A stretch of DNA of 42,376 nucleotides from a virus (taxonomy: Duplodnaviria > Heunggongvirae > Uroviricota > Caudoviricetes), in the IMG/VR virus record IMGVR_UViG_2778261452_000001. One strand, written 5' to 3'. The position numbers were made by a program, and so were the translations under genes. Positions 1 to 6,927 of this stretch are shown one piece after another; position 1 is the first letter of the stretch, and each line of letters starts with the position of its first letter. The notes beneath the pieces were generated by a model. The model was given only the letters and a program-made list of their open reading frames with translations. It was not told the origin of the DNA and searched no databases.

Positions 1-14
1 CAGGAGCTGAAAAT

Positions 15-101
15 ATGAACACGGCATTCAAAATCATTATGGCCGCGATCTATTTCTGGCTGTTCTCTATCACTTTTGGCGGCATCGTCGCGCATGGGTA
101 A
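15..101 (+). CDS. small hydrophobic peptide (28 aa, one predicted TM helix), hypothetical
   Basis: ATG at 15 preceded by CAGGAG at 1-6; translates MNTAFKIIMAAIYFWLFSITFGGIVAHG; TAA at 99-101; sits just before the SD of the 111 gene; below ORF-track size cutoff. Confidence 0.3.
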   Translation: MNTAFKIIMAAIYFWLFSITFGGIVAHG

Positions 102-110
102 GGGGGATGC

Positions 111-836
111 ATGAAAGGCGAAGTGAAAGAGCGCGGCATGATTTTCAACGATGAGATGGTCCGAGCCATCCTCGAAGGAAGGAAAACGCAGACGCGGCGG
201 ATAATGAAAAATCAGCCTGCGGAAGTTGGTCCAGAAGCACCAGTGATGGTTAGGGAAATTGGTGCAGGTTTTCAGTGGTACGGGGCTGATGGTGTAAGCA
301 GTGTTTTCAATTGCCCCTTTGGTATCGTCGGCGATCGAATTTGGGTTCGTGAAACATGGGCGATATTAGGCAATGAAGATGGTTGCAGTGTGGACTGGAA
401 CGACAACCTTTGTCGTGGCGATGAGAAGAACGCAGCAAGGATTTATCGGGCCAGTTGTGAGCAAAAGCCTGGTGATTACGGTTTATGGTCGATACCCGAT
501 GATGCCGACTGGAAACCTCACACTGTGAATGAAAAGTTTGATGGTGGGTGGCGTCCATCAATTCACATGCCGCGATGGGCATCACGCATCCTGTTGGAAA
601 TTACCAACGTGCGCGTTGAGCGGTTGAACAATATCAGCGAATGCGATGCAAGGGATGAGGGCGTTCCGCCTGCTGGAAGTTTGCTTCCTGATCACCCGGG
701 AACATTCCTTACTCCCAAGGGGGATTTCGCAATGGCCAAGGTTGCGTTCCAGCGCCTGTGGGAATCCATCTATGGTGAAGAAAGCTGGAACGCTAATCCC
801 TGGGTGTGGGTAATCGAGTTTGAGCGTATTCAGTAG
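111..836 (+). CDS. conserved phage protein of unknown function (possibly ASCH/PUA-like fold)
   Basis: 241-aa ORF, ATG with AAGGGGGA SD upstream; N-terminal MIFNDEMVRAILEGRKTQTRR motif recalled from prophage proteins; first gene of a coupled + strand operon. Confidence 0.6.
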   Translation: MKGEVKERGMIFNDEMVRAILEGRKTQTRRIMKNQPAEVGPEAPVMVREIGAGFQWYGADGVSSVFNCPFGIVGDRIWVRETWAILGNEDGCSVDWNDNLCRGDEKNAARIYRASCEQKPGDYGLWSIPDDADWKPHTVNEKFDGGWRPSIHMPRWASRILLEITNVRVERLNNISECDARDEGVPPAGSLLPDHPGTFLTPKGDFAMAKVAFQRLWESIYGEESWNANPWVWVIEFERIQ

Positions 837-1476
837 GGCGAGCGTATGCAATCTGTTATTTGATACTGGTACTTATGCGGTGCACACGCCCGGTGATGAA
901 CGATGTGAAGACGTTATCAAATGGACCGGCTTTGATGGACAGAAAAATGCAGAGAACAACGCTCGTCATGTTGCCGCGTTCAACCCAAAGGTTGCACTGG
1001 AGCTGCTTGGTGAAATTAAGTGCTTGGAGGACACAAATATTGATGCCACGTGCCGAATTTCAGAGCTTGAGACTAATCTCGCTGCGCTGGTGGCAGAGAA
1101 CGCTGGGCTGAAACACGCAATGGCCGTAACTCTTGAGCATGTGTCGGTCACGGATGCAGGGCAGGCCGGAGTTGCTGCAATGATTATCAACGATGCCCTG
1201 CACCACAGCGAAACCCCAGCAACCGATGCTTTTCTGGCTGAAGGGAGGACTGAAGCACGCAAGGAAGGCGCTTATTTTGTGGCGAACAGAATGTTGGCTG
1301 CCTGGAAAGCTGGTTTTATTGATGATACTGCGAAGAACGCCGCGGATATTGCCCGGATGATTCTTACCTCTACTGAGTTTATGGCTAATGCGCCGGAAAG
1401 CCATTTTGATCGCTCATTCTCTGATGGCGTTCTCGAAGATATCGCCGAACAGCTTCGTAAAGGAGTCATCCAATGA
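820..1476 (+). CDS. hypothetical phage protein, tandem paralogue A (AAFNPKVAL motif)
   Basis: 218-aa ORF overlapping upstream gene end; TTG start at 820 uncertain (GTG at ~880 alternative); shares NARHVAAFNPKVALELL motif with next gene. Confidence 0.5.
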   Translation: MSVFSRASVCNLLFDTGTYAVHTPGDERCEDVIKWTGFDGQKNAENNARHVAAFNPKVALELLGEIKCLEDTNIDATCRISELETNLAALVAENAGLKHAMAVTLEHVSVTDAGQAGVAAMIINDALHHSETPATDAFLAEGRTEARKEGAYFVANRMLAAWKAGFIDDTAKNAADIARMILTSTEFMANAPESHFDRSFSDGVLEDIAEQLRKGVIQ

Positions 1477-2126
1477 GCAAGATTGACTATCAGGCACTGC
1501 GTGAGGCGGCAGAGAAAGCAACGTGGGGAGACTGGGACTCATATAAACCACACCGTGGCGCACGTGGTTATGAGGTCCGACTAAGTAGTCAGGCCATTGC
1601 GCAACACGTTCTGAAAAACAATGCTGAATTTATTGCCGCCTTTAATCCAAAGGTTGCTTTGGCACTACTGGATGAACGGGAAAGAAACCAGCAATACATA
1701 AAACGCCGCGATCAGGAGAACGAGGATATTGCGCTAACGGTAGGGAAGCTGTTAATCGAAAACGGTCAGCTTGTTGCCGATACGCTACGCCACTTAGCTG
1801 ATAACGAAATCGACTCTGATTATTTTGCTATCACCTCAACGAATGAGAACGGTACTGAAATTGATCATGAGATGGCTATTACCGATTACGCACTGCAAGC
1901 TGCCGGAACTGTAGACGAATTGGTTGCAGCGCTGGAATCCGCAGAGAAGCGCATAGCAGAACTGTCTGCTAGCCACAGCAAATTGCGCGACACAATGGCT
2001 GGCATCCACAACACAATCCGAATGGATGGCGGCTATACGCCACTGGCAGCAATCCTTAACGCTGCTAAACGCGCATATGAAGAATCAGCAAGCGCAGCTG
2101 GCATTCGCATCAAAGGAGGTGAGTAA
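1473..2126 (+). CDS. hypothetical phage protein, tandem paralogue B (AAFNPKVAL motif)
   Basis: 217-aa ORF, ATG with AAAGGAG SD, start overlaps upstream stop (ATGA); motif NNAEFIAAFNPKVALALL matches paralogue A. Confidence 0.6.
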   Translation: MSKIDYQALREAAEKATWGDWDSYKPHRGARGYEVRLSSQAIAQHVLKNNAEFIAAFNPKVALALLDERERNQQYIKRRDQENEDIALTVGKLLIENGQLVADTLRHLADNEIDSDYFAITSTNENGTEIDHEMAITDYALQAAGTVDELVAALESAEKRIAELSASHSKLRDTMAGIHNTIRMDGGYTPLAAILNAAKRAYEESASAAGIRIKGGE

Positions 2127-2298
2127 TGCGTGTGGCATGTATCGGCTTGTTACCGTACCCGACTCGTTTTTGGGCTTCTGCGCTAATTGCGAAGCCGCAT
2201 GTCCTGATGGCTGACAACATCATCCCGGCACCAAAGCGCCGCCATACCGGTATTGCGGCTGCACGACGCGAAGCAAAGAAACGCAGGAGAGCAAAACG

Positions 2299-2487
2299 AT
2301 GAAAAACCGTAAAGCAAAGATTCTGTTAGTTCGTAGAAACGCTCCTGGCGTCTGGCAGTGGGTGAGACTCAGCAACCGACGGATGGGGTTGATGAAATAT
2401 TACGGGATGATGGATTGTGGTTTTTGCAAAAAGCCCAGCGCGGCGCAAAACCGCTGGAAAAACCACTTGCGCACTAAAGGAGAGTGA
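2299..2487 (+). CDS. small basic hypothetical protein
   Basis: 62-aa ORF ending 1 nt before next gene ATG; no recognisable domain. Confidence 0.3.
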   Translation: MKNRKAKILLVRRNAPGVWQWVRLSNRRMGLMKYYGMMDCGFCKKPSAAQNRWKNHLRTKGE

Positions 2488-2488
2488 T

Positions 2489-3004
2489 ATGGCGTTAACA
2501 CACCGCGAACTCTGTCAGATTGCGTATAAGTTCCTTAAGCGCAACGGGTTCAAGGTTTGTTTTCATGACCGCTTTATAGCTGTAACCAGTACCGGAGAAC
2601 AGCCAGATGCTATGGGATTCAGAAATTCAGCATCATGCCTGATAGAAGCGAAGTGTTCTCGTGCTGACTTGTTAGCAGATAGAAAAAAGCGTTTTCGTAA
2701 AAATCCGTCTCTTGGAATGGGCGACTGGCGATTCTTTATTAGTGAGCCGGGAATTATTTCAATTGAGGATTTACCACCTGGCTGGGGATTACTTCACGTT
2801 GTTAACGGAAGAGTACGGAAAGTACATGGGTGGCCCAAGGGTAATTGCTGTTGGGGGAATCCTGACGATAAGCCATTTACTGGAAATAAGCAGGTTGAAT
2901 GCGATTACATGTTATCTGCATTAAGGCGCATGGAGTTGAGAGGGCACCTTAATGAAATATATGACGGTGTAATTGTTAATAAGAAAGAAGGAAACGCGGC
3001 ATGA
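2489..3004 (+). CDS. hypothetical protein with PD-(D/E)xK nuclease-like motif
   Basis: ATG at 2489 with AAAGGAGAGTGAT SD (ORF-track start 2417 is an upstream in-frame extension); D...LIEAKCS resembles D-x(n)-E-x-K. Confidence 0.5.
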   Translation: MALTHRELCQIAYKFLKRNGFKVCFHDRFIAVTSTGEQPDAMGFRNSASCLIEAKCSRADLLADRKKRFRKNPSLGMGDWRFFISEPGIISIEDLPPGWGLLHVVNGRVRKVHGWPKGNCCWGNPDDKPFTGNKQVECDYMLSALRRMELRGHLNEIYDGVIVNKKEGNAA

Positions 3005-3396
3005 TCACTATTACCAAAGAGCGACTACTGACAATCAAGCAGTGGCGCGAAACATACGGACCTGGTAGCAACGTTGTACTGCCAGCAGAAGAAGCGGAAG
3101 AACTGGCACGAATTGCTCTGGCAGCGCTGGAAGTCGAGCCGATAGGTTTCCGTTGCAGGCGCAATGATAACCTTGGTGATTGGAGTTACGTATATCATCG
3201 AGAGCCAGATGATTTTGAGCGCAAACATTTAGTGATAGAGGGTATTTACGCCGCCCCTCCAGCGCAAGTAGTACCGGAAGAAAAACCAATGCCTAATCCT
3301 CTTAGCATGTACGCGGTTGATGCTGTTGCCGCTATTGCAGAGGTGAGAGGCTGGAACGCCTGCCGTGCCGCTATGCTTCAGGGGAAAGGAGAGTGA
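3001..3396 (+). CDS. hypothetical phage protein, short paralogue of the 3606 gene
   Basis: 131-aa ORF; N-terminus MITITKERLL and C-terminal GWNACRAAMLQ match the N-terminus and an internal stretch of the 3606..4490 product; ATGA overlap with upstream stop. Confidence 0.55.
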   Translation: MITITKERLLTIKQWRETYGPGSNVVLPAEEAEELARIALAALEVEPIGFRCRRNDNLGDWSYVYHREPDDFERKHLVIEGIYAAPPAQVVPEEKPMPNPLSMYAVDAVAAIAEVRGWNACRAAMLQGKGE

Positions 3397-3397
3397 T

Positions 3398-3595
3398 ATG
3401 GACAAAAACACACCTGCTTACTGGAGTTTATCACTTGATACTGAATGCCCAAAATGCGGCCACAATTTCGATCTGCTTTGCGATGCTGATTTCTGGGAAT
3501 TTTCTGGAGCAAAACAGGCATGTGAAGAAATAAAAGGTTACGAAACATGCTGCCCAGAATGTAACCATGAATTTAAAACAGATTTTGTGTATTGA
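3398..3595 (+). CDS. small zinc-ribbon protein (CPKCG...CPEC)
   Basis: ATG at 3398 preceded by the same AAAGGAGAGTGAT SD seen at 2476-2488; two Cys pairs CxxC ~40 aa apart. Confidence 0.5.
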   Translation: MDKNTPAYWSLSLDTECPKCGHNFDLLCDADFWEFSGAKQACEEIKGYETCCPECNHEFKTDFVY

Positions 3596-3605
3596 GGCAT
3601 AACGA

Positions 3606-4490
3606 ATGACCACTTTTACTAAAGAACAATTAATAGAGATGATTAAGCGCAATATAACGGTTATGGATCGTTATCCTGATTTAGTAACTGCACAAATGGA
3701 TCTGGAAGTATACAAAATTGCGCTGGCATCACTGGAAGCAGAACCAGTTGCTTATATTTTCAAACATCCGGCCGGGAAATTATTCTGGGCTTTAACGGAT
3801 GAAAGCAATAAAGAGCAACCGGACGTTATTCCTGTTTATGCTGACTCACCCGCGCCGGTTGTGCCGGATGAAATAGACGTAAACGATGTGCCAAGGGCGG
3901 TGACATATTTCAAGACACACAGAGATTGTTACGCAGATGGCTGGAACGCCTGCCGCGCCGCCATGCTTCAGTCCGGAAACTTTCGGGAAAACAAGAATTC
4001 GTCAACCAATAATTTTCGGGAAATCGCGGAAACGTCAACCAACTATCCGGTAATTCCTAGTGAGGTGTTGTCCGCAATCCAGAAGGTTGCCAAGATTCGT
4101 GCCGATTTCGATGATTTTGACGGTGACAGGCGAGGTATCGGTGATTGTCTGGATGAGGCTGAGCAAGAGCTTATCGTTACCATTAACAAATATGCCAGTC
4201 AGTTGGCAGCAGAACCTATAGCGCCTAATGACGTTCGAGAGCAGACAGCCATTCCGCAAGTTCCGGTAACTCCGGATGGTTGGATAAGCTGTAGTGAGCG
4301 AATGCCGAATACCAAAACAGCCGTTCTTGTTGCCGTGGAGTTTGACAGGAAAGGTGACTGGCGAATGAAATGGGCTACTTACATCCCGGGGCATCCTGAC
4401 GCTAATGATGGGTGGATAATTCCTGGTGCGTCGTGGAAACCGTCACACTGGATGCCGCTACCAGAACCGCCGCAGGAGGTGAATCAATGA
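3606..4490 (+). CDS. phage protein with C-terminal DUF551-like domain
   Basis: 294-aa ORF; C-terminal W-rich region ...DGWIIPGASWKPSHWMPLPEPP recalled as DUF551-type; shares DNA and protein repeat with the 3001 gene. Confidence 0.6.
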   Translation: MTTFTKEQLIEMIKRNITVMDRYPDLVTAQMDLEVYKIALASLEAEPVAYIFKHPAGKLFWALTDESNKEQPDVIPVYADSPAPVVPDEIDVNDVPRAVTYFKTHRDCYADGWNACRAAMLQSGNFRENKNSSTNNFREIAETSTNYPVIPSEVLSAIQKVAKIRADFDDFDGDRRGIGDCLDEAEQELIVTINKYASQLAAEPIAPNDVREQTAIPQVPVTPDGWISCSERMPNTKTAVLVAVEFDRKGDWRMKWATYIPGHPDANDGWIIPGASWKPSHWMPLPEPPQEVNQ

Positions 4491-4570
4491 GCTGGCCTGA
4501 AGCATTCACCACGGTAGGAATTGTGATGGCGGCAGCACTGGGTTTGTATTCAATTTGTCGCTGGTGGTAA
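4487..4570 (+). CDS. small hydrophobic peptide (27 aa), hypothetical
   Basis: ATG at 4487 overlaps upstream TGA (ATGA); strong SD AGGAGGTG 6 nt upstream; translates MSWPEAFTTVGIVMAAALGLYSICRWW. Confidence 0.3.
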   Translation: MSWPEAFTTVGIVMAAALGLYSICRWW

Positions 4571-4572
4571 CG

Positions 4573-4806
4573 ATGGGAAAAATAACTTTTGTAGTCGAAT
4601 TTGAGGATGGTAAAGAGCCACCTGTTAGCGCCAATCTTGATGTTGCTGGTGGCAGGCTTGTTTCGGTTCTATTTGGTGACTACCGAGATGATTTCTTCCA
4701 ACCAGAAGAAGTTGATGTGGTGCGAGAGGCATTAAACGAGTTAAGTGTTGATAACGATGATACTCATGCGGAAATCATCCAAAAAATGGAACTGCTAACT
4801 CACTAA
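4573..4806 (+). CDS. hypothetical acidic protein
   Basis: ATG at 4573 (ORF-track start 4555 is a GTG extension); 77 aa; follows small peptide ORF by 2 nt. Confidence 0.45.
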   Translation: MGKITFVVEFEDGKEPPVSANLDVAGGRLVSVLFGDYRDDFFQPEEVDVVREALNELSVDNDDTHAEIIQKMELLTH

Positions 4807-4854
4807 ATTATCAATTATGGTGCTATCACCTACGACACCGAGAGAAAATTTATA

Positions 4855-4977
4855 ATGTCAAAAGTAAATGTTTTGATTTTTTCAGCAATTGTTGGCTTTG
4901 GTTTTACTGCCGGAGTGCAGATTTATATTACGTGGGAAAAAATCATCAACTACGCATGGAGTTGTTTTATTAAGTGA
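4855..4977 (+). CDS. small hydrophobic peptide (40 aa), hypothetical
   Basis: ATG at 4855; translates MSKVNVLIFSAIVGFGFTAGVQIYITWEKIINYAWSCFIK; TGA at 4975-4977; AT-rich; weak SD. Confidence 0.25.
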   Translation: MSKVNVLIFSAIVGFGFTAGVQIYITWEKIINYAWSCFIK

Positions 4978-4984
4978 GGTAAGT

Positions 4985-5278
4985 ATGTGGAGAGGTAATA
5001 GTCATGGCAAAAGCCAGATGATACTTACCGAATATCAGCTCGACCACAAAACCAATAAATCACGTTCAGTATATTTGCTTCGCCACAATAGCCGCGTAAG
5101 GAATACCGTACTGGAGCAAAATCTGACCGTTGAAATGGATAATTACGGGGGCTTCAAGCCAACAATATCGCTTGATGATTTTCCTCGTGGTTTAAGCGAA
5201 AGAGAAGCAATGCTGAAATTAGCAGAATGGCTACAAAGATTAAGCATTGCTATTGAAGATAACTGGTCTGAACCTTAA
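4985..5278 (+). CDS. hypothetical protein
   Basis: ATG at 4985 with GTGAGGT SD; ORF-track entry 4889..5278 begins upstream at a non-ATG codon and overlaps the small peptide ORF. Confidence 0.4.
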   Translation: MWRGNSHGKSQMILTEYQLDHKTNKSRSVYLLRHNSRVRNTVLEQNLTVEMDNYGGFKPTISLDDFPRGLSEREAMLKLAEWLQRLSIAIEDNWSEP

Positions 5279-5284
5279 ATTAAT

Positions 5285-5659
5285 ATGATGACACTAAAAC
5301 ATTTTCTTGACCGCCCATTATGGGCGGCAGCCGCAGGCTATGACTTTAATTATATGGATTGCATGTCTTATACTGCCAATGCATACGACCATTCGTTCAG
5401 CCTGCTGTTTAATTCTTTAAGAATATTGCCGGAAACAGAAGTTGGAGAGCTTCATTTATGGATATTGGGCTTTATCGCGGCTGTCGTTGGTATTGCTGTA
5501 TGGCCTTTTATTTTCTGGCTGGTGGCTGTTGTAGTGTGGTTTAAGTGCAAGACATACCGGAGAAAGTATTTCTTAGGTGATGGAATGACTGATATTGCCA
5601 AAATGAACATTGAAAAATGGACTAAGGAATGTGAAAAGAAATGGCGCAAAAAGAAATGA
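5285..5659 (+). CDS. predicted membrane protein
   Basis: 124-aa ORF from ATG 5285; long hydrophobic stretch LWILGFIAAVVGIAVWPFIFWLVAVVVWF; lysine-rich C-terminus. Confidence 0.5.
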   Translation: MMTLKHFLDRPLWAAAAGYDFNYMDCMSYTANAYDHSFSLLFNSLRILPETEVGELHLWILGFIAAVVGIAVWPFIFWLVAVVVWFKCKTYRRKYFLGDGMTDIAKMNIEKWTKECEKKWRKKK

Positions 5660-6573
5660 CCAGAATCACTGAAGAGCGTATATCAGAGACTATTTCCCGT
5701 ATCGAAATGTATGGTCACGGTGCTGGATATACGGCAGATGAAGTATTGGCACTTGCCCAAATGGCTTTGGCGGCTTGCAAAGATGATAAAAAAATGAAGC
5801 TTATCGACTTGTTAGTGAAGGAGCTGCCTAAGTGCGGCGGGTGGCCTGATGGAATGAGTTATTGTTACCTACCCAGTGTCAATTTAATGGCACCATGCGC
5901 GACTTTTGCTTTTGGCTCAGACCACAAAAAAGACACTTTCTTTGGGCGCAATTTTTGTTGTGAGATTGAGCTTCCAATTGGTGACCTTGATAGCGATGAA
6001 TACCAGTCAGTTGTCACTCGCGAACAATACGAATCAGCTCTCATAGCGTCGCAGAAAGTCGAGTTCAATGGTGATGAACTTGAAAGTAAGACTTACAGGT
6101 TGGATTTTGGGCAATGGCTGGAACAGCAACGCGGGAAAATCGATGTGGACTGTGGTTGTGTGTCCACTGAAACATTCATGCACTGGCTGCGGGTAGCTTA
6201 CGAGGCTGGCAACTATCCGGACATTCCGGATAGTTCGGTGCCAGCGAAAGGAAAGGGCGTCCCCGGTGAACGTATCCGAATTAAGCCGCATGTTTATCGC
6301 GAACTGGTTAACCGCCTCCACGATACAGCGGTCAAGTGTGCTGGCACCCAGCAATTACGAGAAAGAATTAGCCGTGTTTTGGGCGACGTTATTACGCCAG
6401 ATCATCATAAACAAGCCGAGAAAAGTGACCTAGAAAGGTGTCACCTTGAGGCGGCATTAAACATTAAGCCGGGGCATACGCTTGGCATTATCGATGCTCT
6501 GTTGGTTCATAAGATGGCCATGGCTTTATTGCCGTTGGTGGATGCTGGCGATACAAGCGAGGGTGAAGTATGA
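5641..6573 (+). CDS. hypothetical protein
   Basis: 310-aa ORF overlapping upstream gene end; no recognisable motif. Confidence 0.55.
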   Translation: MAQKEMTRITEERISETISRIEMYGHGAGYTADEVLALAQMALAACKDDKKMKLIDLLVKELPKCGGWPDGMSYCYLPSVNLMAPCATFAFGSDHKKDTFFGRNFCCEIELPIGDLDSDEYQSVVTREQYESALIASQKVEFNGDELESKTYRLDFGQWLEQQRGKIDVDCGCVSTETFMHWLRVAYEAGNYPDIPDSSVPAKGKGVPGERIRIKPHVYRELVNRLHDTAVKCAGTQQLRERISRVLGDVITPDHHKQAEKSDLERCHLEAALNIKPGHTLGIIDALLVHKMAMALLPLVDAGDTSEGEV

Positions 6574-6576
6574 GAG

Positions 6577-6927
6577 TTGCACATCAAACACCTTGAAAGA
6601 ATTATCGAAAACGGTGAACTCTTAAGAGATCAGATGAGACGCACGGCAGAAGTCAGAGAGGCGATAATCCGCAGTCAGGCTGGTAAATTAAAGCAATTGT
6701 CAGAGATTAACGCGCTATACAAGAACAGACGTAACCGGGCGGCGCGGCGGCTTCAGAAAGCACGTAATGAAATTAAATTGGTGGAGGCAAAACTGAAAAA
6801 ACAGATTCAGCGTTACGATCAGCAAGATGCTTTTTATGCCGCCATCAAGGCGGCTGCTAATGAAATAGGCATCTGGAAGTTGCTGGTGGAGAAAGCAAAG
6901 ACGAAGTTAAATGCCAACGAAAGCTGA
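6577..6927 (+). CDS. hypothetical coiled-coil protein
   Basis: 116-aa ORF beginning 4 nt after upstream stop (TTG start); K/R/E-rich, helical heptad-like. Confidence 0.4.
   Translation: MHIKHLERIIENGELLRDQMRRTAEVREAIIRSQAGKLKQLSEINALYKNRRNRAARRLQKARNEIKLVEAKLKKQIQRYDQQDAFYAAIKAAANEIGIWKLLVEKAKTKLNANES

Follow-up and report, generated by a model that had tools for sequence, protein, structure and literature searches.

The DNA analysed in this work (the window) is the 42,376 nucleotide virus record IMGVR_UViG_2778261452_000001 of IMG/VR, a P1-like IncY phage-plasmid, and the subject is three short open reading frames (ORFs) for hydrophobic peptides near its left end. Over positions 1-5400 the identity is 99.9% with the IncY plasmid pMTY2330 and, piecewise in a mosaic, about 97% with the phages P1, P7, SJ46 and RCS47; single genes of this part are also found in lambdoid and Stx prophages. 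The region is the accessory operon which follows pap in P1-like phage-plasmids and which goes by the name pmgT in P1 and as the "hea" operon in P7. Judged by substitution patterns, the second of the three ORFs is a genuine protein-coding gene beyond reasonable doubt, the family of the third is clearly under purifying selection in other phages, and the evidence of selection on the first is suggestive. The three ORFs and their ribosome-binding (Shine-Dalgarno, SD) sequences are the following:

2..6, + strand: SD AGGAG of ORF1, 8 nt before the ATG at 15
15..101, + strand: ORF1, 28 codons (MNTAFKIIMAAIYFWLFSITFGGIVAHG), first cistron of the C1-controlled pmgT/"hea" operon, with a hydrophobic helix at about residues 5-25
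4474..4480, + strand: SD AGGAGGT of ORF2, 6 nt before the ATG at 4487
4487..4570, + strand: ORF2, 27 codons (MSWPEAFTTVGIVMAAALGLYSICRWW), a translationally coupled micro-gene with one predicted transmembrane helix
4840..4844, + strand: weak SD-like GAGAG of ORF3, 10 nt before the ATG at 4855
4855..4977, + strand: ORF3, 40 codons (MSKVNVLIFSAIVGFGFTAGVQIYITWEKIINYAWSCFIK), with a hydrophobic N-terminal helix running into an amphipathic C-terminal part

The positions and lengths are those given in a preliminary description made from the letters of this DNA alone, and the strong SDs of ORF1 and ORF2, as well as the ATGA overlap of ORF2 with its upstream gene, can be read in the sequence as that description had them. 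Its claim of one transmembrane-like helix for each peptide also agrees with the hydrophobicity profiles. Kyte-Doolittle maxima over 17 residues (KD17) lie between 1.81 and 1.85 (1.84 for ORF1, 1.81 for ORF2 and 1.85 for ORF3), and the longest run free of D, E, K, R, H, N, Q and P is 20, 19 and 16 residues, respectively, so that each ORF has one hydrophobic stretch which is compatible with a single membrane span. As a background we took all ATG-initiated ORFs of 24-60 amino acids in the six frames of the window (n = 229) and applied cut-offs of KD17 of at least 1.8 and an uncharged run of at least 17 residues. Six of these short ORFs (2.6%) pass, ORF1 and ORF2 among them, and ORF3 fails solely through Gln22.

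Searches of Pfam, NCBIfam, PADLOC and PDB sequences returned nothing significant for any of the three peptides. A PHROG match exists for ORF3 only, to a family whose function is not described, and ORF1 and ORF2 belong to no curated family, ORF2 being without a match in Pfam, NCBIfam, PHROG, PADLOC and PDB alike. In the literature no paper with the peptide strings and no ribosome profiling of P1 was found. From their sequences the three ORFs appear to be new members of the class of small single-pass membrane proteins, none of them falling within a characterised family.

The curated annotation of P1 places the C1 operator OpmgT (formerly Op88) and the predicted promoters P1/P2pmgT directly after pap. 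The leader of ORF1 is cut by base 1 of the window, and promoter, operator and hairpin were read from the 99.9% identical pMTY2330 and from P1. In pMTY2330, SJ46, P7 and P1 a 17-nt C1 operator (ATTGCTCTAATAAATCT) and an 8-9 bp hairpin (ACATGCCG-loop-CGGCATGT) are found just 5' of the position corresponding to base 1, and because both stand directly upstream of it, the window begins within the 5' leader of a repressor-controlled early transcription unit. ORF1 is a short ORF in this operon leader, with the Op88 promoter before it and the first long gene after it. Scanning of positions 1-6600 gave no sigma-70-like promoter and no terminator-like site on the + strand in the gaps holding the three ORFs, and on the other strand nothing promoter-like was found at ORF1, ORF2 or ORF3; promoter-like and terminator-like matches are altogether fewer in 1-6600 than in shuffled sequence. 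A search of the same interval against Rfam gave no family at E <= 1. Between positions 1 and 6573 the only + strand gaps of more than 10 nt between genes, besides a deletion scar at 834-861, are 1-110, 4491-4572 and 4807-4984, and these are exactly the places of ORF1, ORF2 and ORF3. Their stops lie 9, 2 and 7 nt before the following start, and the next SD overlaps or abuts the stop in each case. Gap filling and stop/start spacing of this kind are unlike those of chance ORFs.

Three observations concern the hairpin itself. It is conserved and corresponds to P1 84343-84365, where the Op88/pmgT transcript is predicted to begin; 12 nt separate it from the SD of ORF1, and its per-site variability (0.23) stands beside a value of 0.24 for ORF1. 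A base of its loop which differs between relatives opens or closes a spurious 44 amino acid extension of ORF1. The hairpin may serve as an mRNA-stabilising stem-loop.

The evidence is strongest for ORF2. The degenerate-pattern scan of IMG/VR gave at least 489 confirmed ORF2 loci, 80 of which were retrieved; together with the window and other loci these represent 24 distinct 84-nt haplotypes, all intact and all of 27 codons, with a stop codon that changes between TAA and TGA while keeping its position. Variable sites fall 6/5/19 on the three codon positions, and the ratio of non-synonymous to synonymous change per site (pN/pS, pooled Nei-Gojobori) is 0.149 in frame, the two other sense frames giving 1.97 and 1.60. 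A gene on the antisense strand of ORF2 was considered and rejected: a low pN/pS of 0.23 in one antisense frame is what the wobble positions of the sense frame lead one to expect there, and that frame is without a usable start.

The translation signals of ORF2 are conserved in the same way. In the window its ATG overlaps the TGA of the DUF551 gene at 3606..4490 (ATGA), and the last codons of that gene, QEVNQ*, are the SD of ORF2. Across contexts at least five unrelated genes precede ORF2, and a GGAGG- or GAGG-type SD with an ATGA or TAATG overlap is found in every one of them; the unrelated upstream proteins share a QEVN[QR] C-terminus because those codons form the ORF2 SD. Since SD and overlap are kept behind unrelated genes, the SD together with ORF2 constitutes a portable module. 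Length, SD and overlap are retained also in a diverged copy, MNWPEAFTAVGVAIAVAFILYSLFRWG. The downstream partner varies: the phrog_3876 gene that follows in the window is the commonest but not an obligatory one, and in 30 of 71 distinct contexts there is no gene within 60 nt.

The 18 distinct ORF2 peptides have in common an invariant M1, W3-P4-E5-A6-F7, G11, A15, Y21, S22 and W26. Variability along the peptide has a periodicity which peaks at 100 degrees per residue (permutation p = 0.033), and these data suggest that the helix has one conserved face, formed by G11, A15, L18 and Y21/S22.

ORF2-like DNA is present in 1486 of 5426 complete Escherichia coli genomes, at 2361 places of which 2199 are chromosomal, and up to six copies occur in one genome, O157:H7 included. 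One of the 84-nt copies, at 2163180-2163263, lies on the chromosome of ATCC 43894. Annotation has mostly passed it by. In both of the two genomes inspected the Prokaryotic Genome Annotation Pipeline (PGAP) left the ORF2 slot empty, and the nr database holds a few "hypothetical proteins" of 45 amino acids which are ORF2 with a wrong start. The longer forms of 45-52 amino acids in nr were rejected as the true gene, the extra N-terminus being the out-of-frame end of one particular upstream gene, which is missing elsewhere. In SJ46 a shorter diverged paralogue of 24 amino acids (MSWPEAFAIVGVAMAIAAIFIFWG) is found unannotated at about 4878-4952 of the SJ46 stretch, its start being the last base of the upstream eaa-like gene; the family defined by WPEAF is therefore wider than the 27 amino acid form.

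All 40 residues of ORF3 align with the 40 positions of the profile of phrog_5525 (E = 1.2e-24), a family whose members are annotated as hypothetical proteins in SJ46 (gp090), EC.W1-9 and phiv142-3. Within P1-like elements the sequence is nearly invariant and the few changes look neutral. Diverged relatives, found by tblastn and by a second scan of IMG/VR, are of 50-75% identity and likewise of 40 residues, and occur in E. coli phages of the Uetakevirus type (EC.W1-9, phiv142-3 Orf32 and others); a further subfamily has 45-46 amino acids. K3, GFG, AG, Y..W27 and W35 are shared by the three subfamilies. In the Uetakevirus-type subfamily pN/pS is 0.22 versus 0.92 and 2.89 out of frame, and variable sites fall 19/10/30 on the codon positions, a pattern which points clearly to purifying selection on the family in these other phages. 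There the SD is GGAGGTGAAGTG, directly before the ATG and of the GGAGG type, the ATG shares bases with the stop of the DUF551/ea22-type gene before it, and the overlap with the next gene is 8 nt. Given this overlap with a DUF551 gene, the ORF3-type gene in those phages fills the slot held by ORF2 in the window.

AlphaFold2 predicts ORF3 as a single helix of residues 3-39 (pLDDT 86), in which residues 26-40 are amphipathic (hydrophobic moment about 0.5). The family is narrow, with 8 cluster representatives among 1.84 billion in an exhaustive profile search, and ORF3 DNA is present in 204 of the 5426 E. coli genomes, nearly all of it on plasmids. In none of the 30 records listed had PGAP annotated ORF3.

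ORF1 is base-for-base identical in phage P1 (84393-84479), where it stands unannotated in the pmgT leader. Copies were retrieved by anchoring on SD and ATG, so that the invariance of the SD among them is not independent evidence. Of 117 copies 116 are intact, with 19 haplotypes and no frameshift or nonsense change, and one is disrupted by an insertion. Counted as distinct substitutions, non-synonymous to synonymous changes (N:S) are 11:9 in its own frame (omega about 0.34), 15:4 in frame +1 and 13:6 in frame +2; the 3' end of pap gives 30:39 (omega about 0.23). Variability per site amounts to 0.24 for ORF1 and 0.30 for pap, and rises to 0.73 over the promoter and operator. ORF1 combines the best translation signals of the three with a pattern of selection that is suggestive of its being maintained as a gene. 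A search for deeper homologues in a protein database and by a scan of species-representative genomes gave only matches of at least 93% identity, in Escherichia.

A 44 amino acid version of ORF1, annotated in SJ46 and in some PGAP records, was rejected: the extension begins inside the hairpin, has no SD and reads ATG CCG TAA in pMTY2330. As it is broken by TAA at codon 3 in the closest relative of the window, the 28 codons are the conserved unit. ORF1 DNA occurs in 883 of the 5426 E. coli genomes and is mostly plasmid-borne; many of these genomic matches are remnants of 80-84 bp in IncF plasmids, in which IS1 has cut 7 nt inside the ORF.

The homology of P1-like backbones breaks 4-5 nt after the ORF1 stop (window 99-106), beyond which follows either pmgT-like cargo or a convergent type I hsdR, and this breakpoint agrees with the notes of the P1 curators on the flanks of R124/3 and EcoDXXI. 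The end of ORF1 in this way marks, in P1-like backbones, the fixed left border of a slot at which cargo is exchanged, and in the protein database ORF1 is found fused (...AHG-Y-...) to five different tails. Two other roles were considered, the first of which was rejected. As an arm of a paired recombination site ORF1 would have a counterpart, and there is no repeat of its region elsewhere in the first 12 kb; as an attenuation leader peptide it lacks a terminator-like site after it and a run of any single amino acid, and its leader folds no better than shuffled sequences (z = -1.23, unexceptional despite the 5' hairpin).

The preliminary description had taken two of the three ORFs, ORF1 and ORF2, for deliberately translated micro-proteins and not noise. 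For the three as a set this view holds; purifying selection bears it out for ORF2 and for the ORF3 family, and for ORF1 the evidence stays suggestive. Conservation of the frames among related genomes, on which that description had let its suggestion depend, was looked at and found, within a shallow lineage in the case of ORF1. Its ranking by strength of SD, with ORF1 and ORF2 strong and ORF3 weakest, did not hold, as the comparative evidence ranks them otherwise.

The reading we favour, and which we place just on the probable side, is that the three ORFs are micro-cistrons of an early C1-controlled operon whose products are inner-membrane helices, with ORF2 and the ORF3 family binding a membrane partner. 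Here we infer translation, membrane insertion, early timing in this element and partner binding. On loss of the C1 repressor the operon would be transcribed from OpmgT/Op88, just 5' of window base 1. ORF1, as first cistron, would be initiated independently from its own AGGAG; ORF2 would be translated by termination-reinitiation of ribosomes finishing the DUF551 gene, through the ATGA overlap and AGGAGGT; and ORF3 would be weakly translated from its poor SD. Each product is predicted to be inserted in the inner membrane as a single hydrophobic helix; for ORF2 the predicted orientation is N-out/C-in, with E5 outside and R25 inside. ORF2 and the ORF3 family would be sequence-specific small membrane proteins, ORF2 with the invariant interfacial ends WPEAF and YSICRW, and most likely the conserved face of ORF2 packs on a host or phage membrane protein and alters its activity early in lytic development. 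Modulation of a partner is the mode of action of characterised bacterial small membrane proteins. ORF2-type and ORF3-type genes are, moreover, portable modules in which SD and ORF move as one, and in lambdoid, Uetakevirus-type and P1-like phages either of them may take the place right behind a DUF551-type gene. A tentative extension, doubtful as it stands, is that they are two interchangeable families of early micro-effectors which would insert into the inner membrane and specifically disarm or commandeer a membrane protein of the host, such as a membrane-anchored defence effector, a transporter or receptor, or machinery of the FtsH/YidC type.

Several findings weigh against the favoured reading. 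The selection signal of ORF1 comes from 20 substitution events in a shallow lineage of Escherichia-type P1-like backbones, its variants G22D, G23D, L16Q and G28R bring Asp, Gln or Arg into or beside the helix, and one plasmid has lost AIYFW in frame. ORF1 also persists where a convergent hsdR has replaced the whole downstream operon, and as an IS1-truncated remnant, and part of its conservation is therefore plain backbone identity. For ORF3, the window-type subfamily has about 12 non-synonymous to 3 synonymous changes (hand count from haplotypes), a pN/pS of 0.61 and variable sites of 8/6/8 by codon position; in one contig the ATG is changed to CTG, in one variant the stop is lost with read-through to 47 amino acids, and the SD in the window is weak. 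The window's own copy of ORF3 thus looks relaxed. The helical-face signal of ORF2, drawn from 18 peptides that are related to one another, is a modest one (p about 0.03). All neighbouring genes belong to PHROGs without described function, DUF551 being the only recognised domain, and as they give no functional clue no partner can be named. Translation, membrane localisation or a phenotype of the three peptides was not found in the literature or in one ribosome profiling supplement on enterohaemorrhagic E. coli (EHEC).

Three other explanations have to be set against the favoured one. The peptides could be membrane-damaging toxins, similar to type I toxins, to Kil or to holins, which depolarise or permeabilise the inner membrane or block division without a specific partner. 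A size of 27-40 amino acids with one hydrophobic helix is that of TisB, ShoB, DinQ and Ibs, and C1 would keep the genes silent in the lysogen. Rfam, however, gives no antitoxin RNA, and nothing promoter-like lies opposite the ORFs; ORF2- and ORF3-type genes are stop-start-coupled within operons and do not stand alone, lysis genes are not adjacent, a charged C-terminal tail is absent and the peptides are far under holin size. Up to six ORF2 copies coexist in one genome, and the conserved face and invariant interfacial motifs of ORF2 point to specific recognition. We regard this explanation as unlikely; the holin-like and type-I-toxin-like roles proposed in the preliminary description do not agree with the genomic context wherever this could be checked.

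It is quite unlikely, in our view, that the act of translation alone matters, with ribosomes shielding spacers of 80-180 nt from Rho-dependent polarity and being handed on to the next gene while the peptide is incidental. Such relays would account for ORFs which fill the operon's only gaps, stop 2-9 nt before the next start and have the next SD at their stop, and also for the weak or missing amino-acid constraint of ORF1, which tolerates G22D, G23D and L16Q, and of the window's ORF3 subfamily. Yet a relay has no need of hydrophobicity, and all three peptides are hydrophobic against a background of about 3%; ORF2 has a pN/pS of 0.15 and invariant motifs and in 30 of its 71 contexts no downstream gene within 60 nt, and ORF3 is constrained in Uetakevirus-type phages. 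Amino-acid constraint excludes relays for ORF2 and the ORF3 family; for ORF1 they are a possible reading. More improbable as a general account is that the ORFs, mainly ORF1 and the window's ORF3, are non-coding chance frames of a young, near-identical P1 backbone or reflect another role of the DNA or RNA, such as a recombination boundary or an mRNA leader. ORF1 copies are indeed 92-100% identical with no diverged relatives, the backbone homology breaks 4-5 nt past the stop, a dead IS1-truncated remnant is carried by IncF plasmids, the P1 curators left ORF1 unannotated, and window-type ORF3 looks neutral. On the other side stand the canonical SD and spacing of ORF1, an N:S which is the best of three frames and comparable to that of pap, and 116 intact copies without frameshift or nonsense, while the ORF1 region has no second repeat at the other end of the variable slot, no Rfam match and a leader fold of z = -1.23, and ORF3 has constrained homologues of the same length. 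Chance is excluded for ORF2; ORF1 and the window's ORF3 copy remain candidates for it.

The favoured reading, of micro-cistrons for membrane helices, can be compared with several known systems. Small inner-membrane regulators of bacteria of at most 50 amino acids include MgrB, AcrZ, MgtS, MgtR, PmrR and CydX (PMC12648545). Like these, the three peptides have 27-40 amino acids, one hydrophobic helix and no catalytic domain and are easily missed by annotation, and the conserved face and interfacial residues of ORF2 fit helix-helix recognition of a partner. Unlike them, the ORFs of the window are phage-borne, modular and part of a repressor-controlled early operon, and NCBIfam, Pfam and PDB searches gave no sequence similarity.

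The membrane toxins of type I toxin-antitoxin systems are Hok, TisB, ShoB, DinQ, Ibs, Ldr and ZorO. Size, a hydrophobic single helix and frequent occurrence on mobile elements and prophages are common to both groups, whereas the window ORFs have no antisense RNA gene or promoter and no Rfam antitoxin, and ORF2- and ORF3-type genes are coupled in operons. Holins have about 60 amino acids or more and a charged hydrophilic C-terminal tail. In distinction to these, ORF2 has 27 amino acids and ends in RWW, ORF1 has 28 and ends in AHG, and ORF3 has 40 with an amphipathic, weakly charged C-terminal segment; the three lie amid PmgT-like, ead/Ea22-like and DUF551 genes behind a C1 operator and not behind a late promoter. 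Within phrog_5525 itself, the ORF3 of the window differs from the Uetakevirus-type members by the loss of the strong SD and of stop-start coupling.

The small ORFs of the lambdoid exo-xis/ea region comprise orf60a, orf61, orf63, orf73, ea8.5 and ea22 (PMC4195576, PMC8614690). These too are early, non-essential accessory genes, and ORF2 copies lie amid ead/Ea22-like and DUF551 genes and sometimes just upstream of xis/int; the proteins described from the region are, however, soluble and of at least 60 amino acids, none being a 27 amino acid transmembrane peptide. ORF2 is not among the annotated ORFs of the exo-xis/ea region in the records inspected. Among small early phage membrane factors, T4 Imm, T4 Sp and T5 Llp act in exclusion or at the envelope, and lambda Kil is a host-targeting peptide. 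The likeness to these is that of small, early, membrane-associated accessory factors; they have no homology to the window ORFs, are of 47-100 amino acids and some are lipoproteins.

The genes adjoining the three ORFs are the following:

111..836, + strand: gene after ORF1, 241 amino acids, phrog_874, PmgT-like in its N-terminal part and with its SD, GGGGGA, on or directly next to the ORF1 stop
3606..4490, + strand: DUF551-domain gene (Pfam DUF551, E = 5.9e-21)
4573..4806, + strand: gene after ORF2, 77 amino acids, phrog_3876, starting 2 nt past the ORF2 stop
4985..5278, + strand: gene after ORF3, 97 amino acids, phrog_1258; its SD GAGG overlaps the ORF3 stop

Two genes past ORF3, at 5285-5659, the operon encodes another membrane protein of 124 amino acids (phrog_2638) with a long, strongly hydrophobic central segment, ELHLWILGFIAAVVGIAVWPFIFWLVAVVVWF. 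At 834-861 a 28-nt junction stands in place of 1240 nt present in the otherwise 99.9-100% identical pMTY2330; the lost DNA comprises three small genes and the 5' end of an ead/Ea22-like gene. The first ead/Ea22-like gene of the window (end at 1476) is accordingly truncated at its 5' side, with TTG 820 or GTG 877 as the only possible starts. An exact 17-nt cassette of SD, stop and start linker, AAAGGAGAGTGATATGG, is found at two gene boundaries (2476-2492 and 3385-3401). Junction cassettes such as AAAGGAGAGTGATATGG and the ORF2 linker CAGGAGGTGAATCAATGA may be joints at which mosaic phage operons recombine. Two copies of a 33-nt repeat, 94% identical, at 3349-3381 and 3939-3971 encode GWNACRAAMLQ in the genes 3001..3396 and 3606..4490, and the DUF551 gene contains in addition a 33-nt tandem duplication at 3978-4042.

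The most noteworthy result is how widely the unannotated ORF2 family is spread and how cleanly selection shows in it. Annotation systematically overlooks small membrane proteins, and ORF2 is a clean example: about one in four complete E. coli genomes carries it, and EHEC prophages have it in several copies. The comparison of the three ORFs also indicates that the strength of the SD alone misranks candidates for micro-genes, and that micro-genes travel with their SD and so dictate the last residues of whichever gene precedes them. For the biology of P1, the analysis adds an unannotated first cistron to the Op88/pmgT operon. If the proposed role as early effectors directed at a host membrane protein is true, the ORF2 family, with almost no annotation and a presence in about 27% of complete E. 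coli genomes, would rank among the uncharacterised factors of phage host takeover that are most widely spread in this species.

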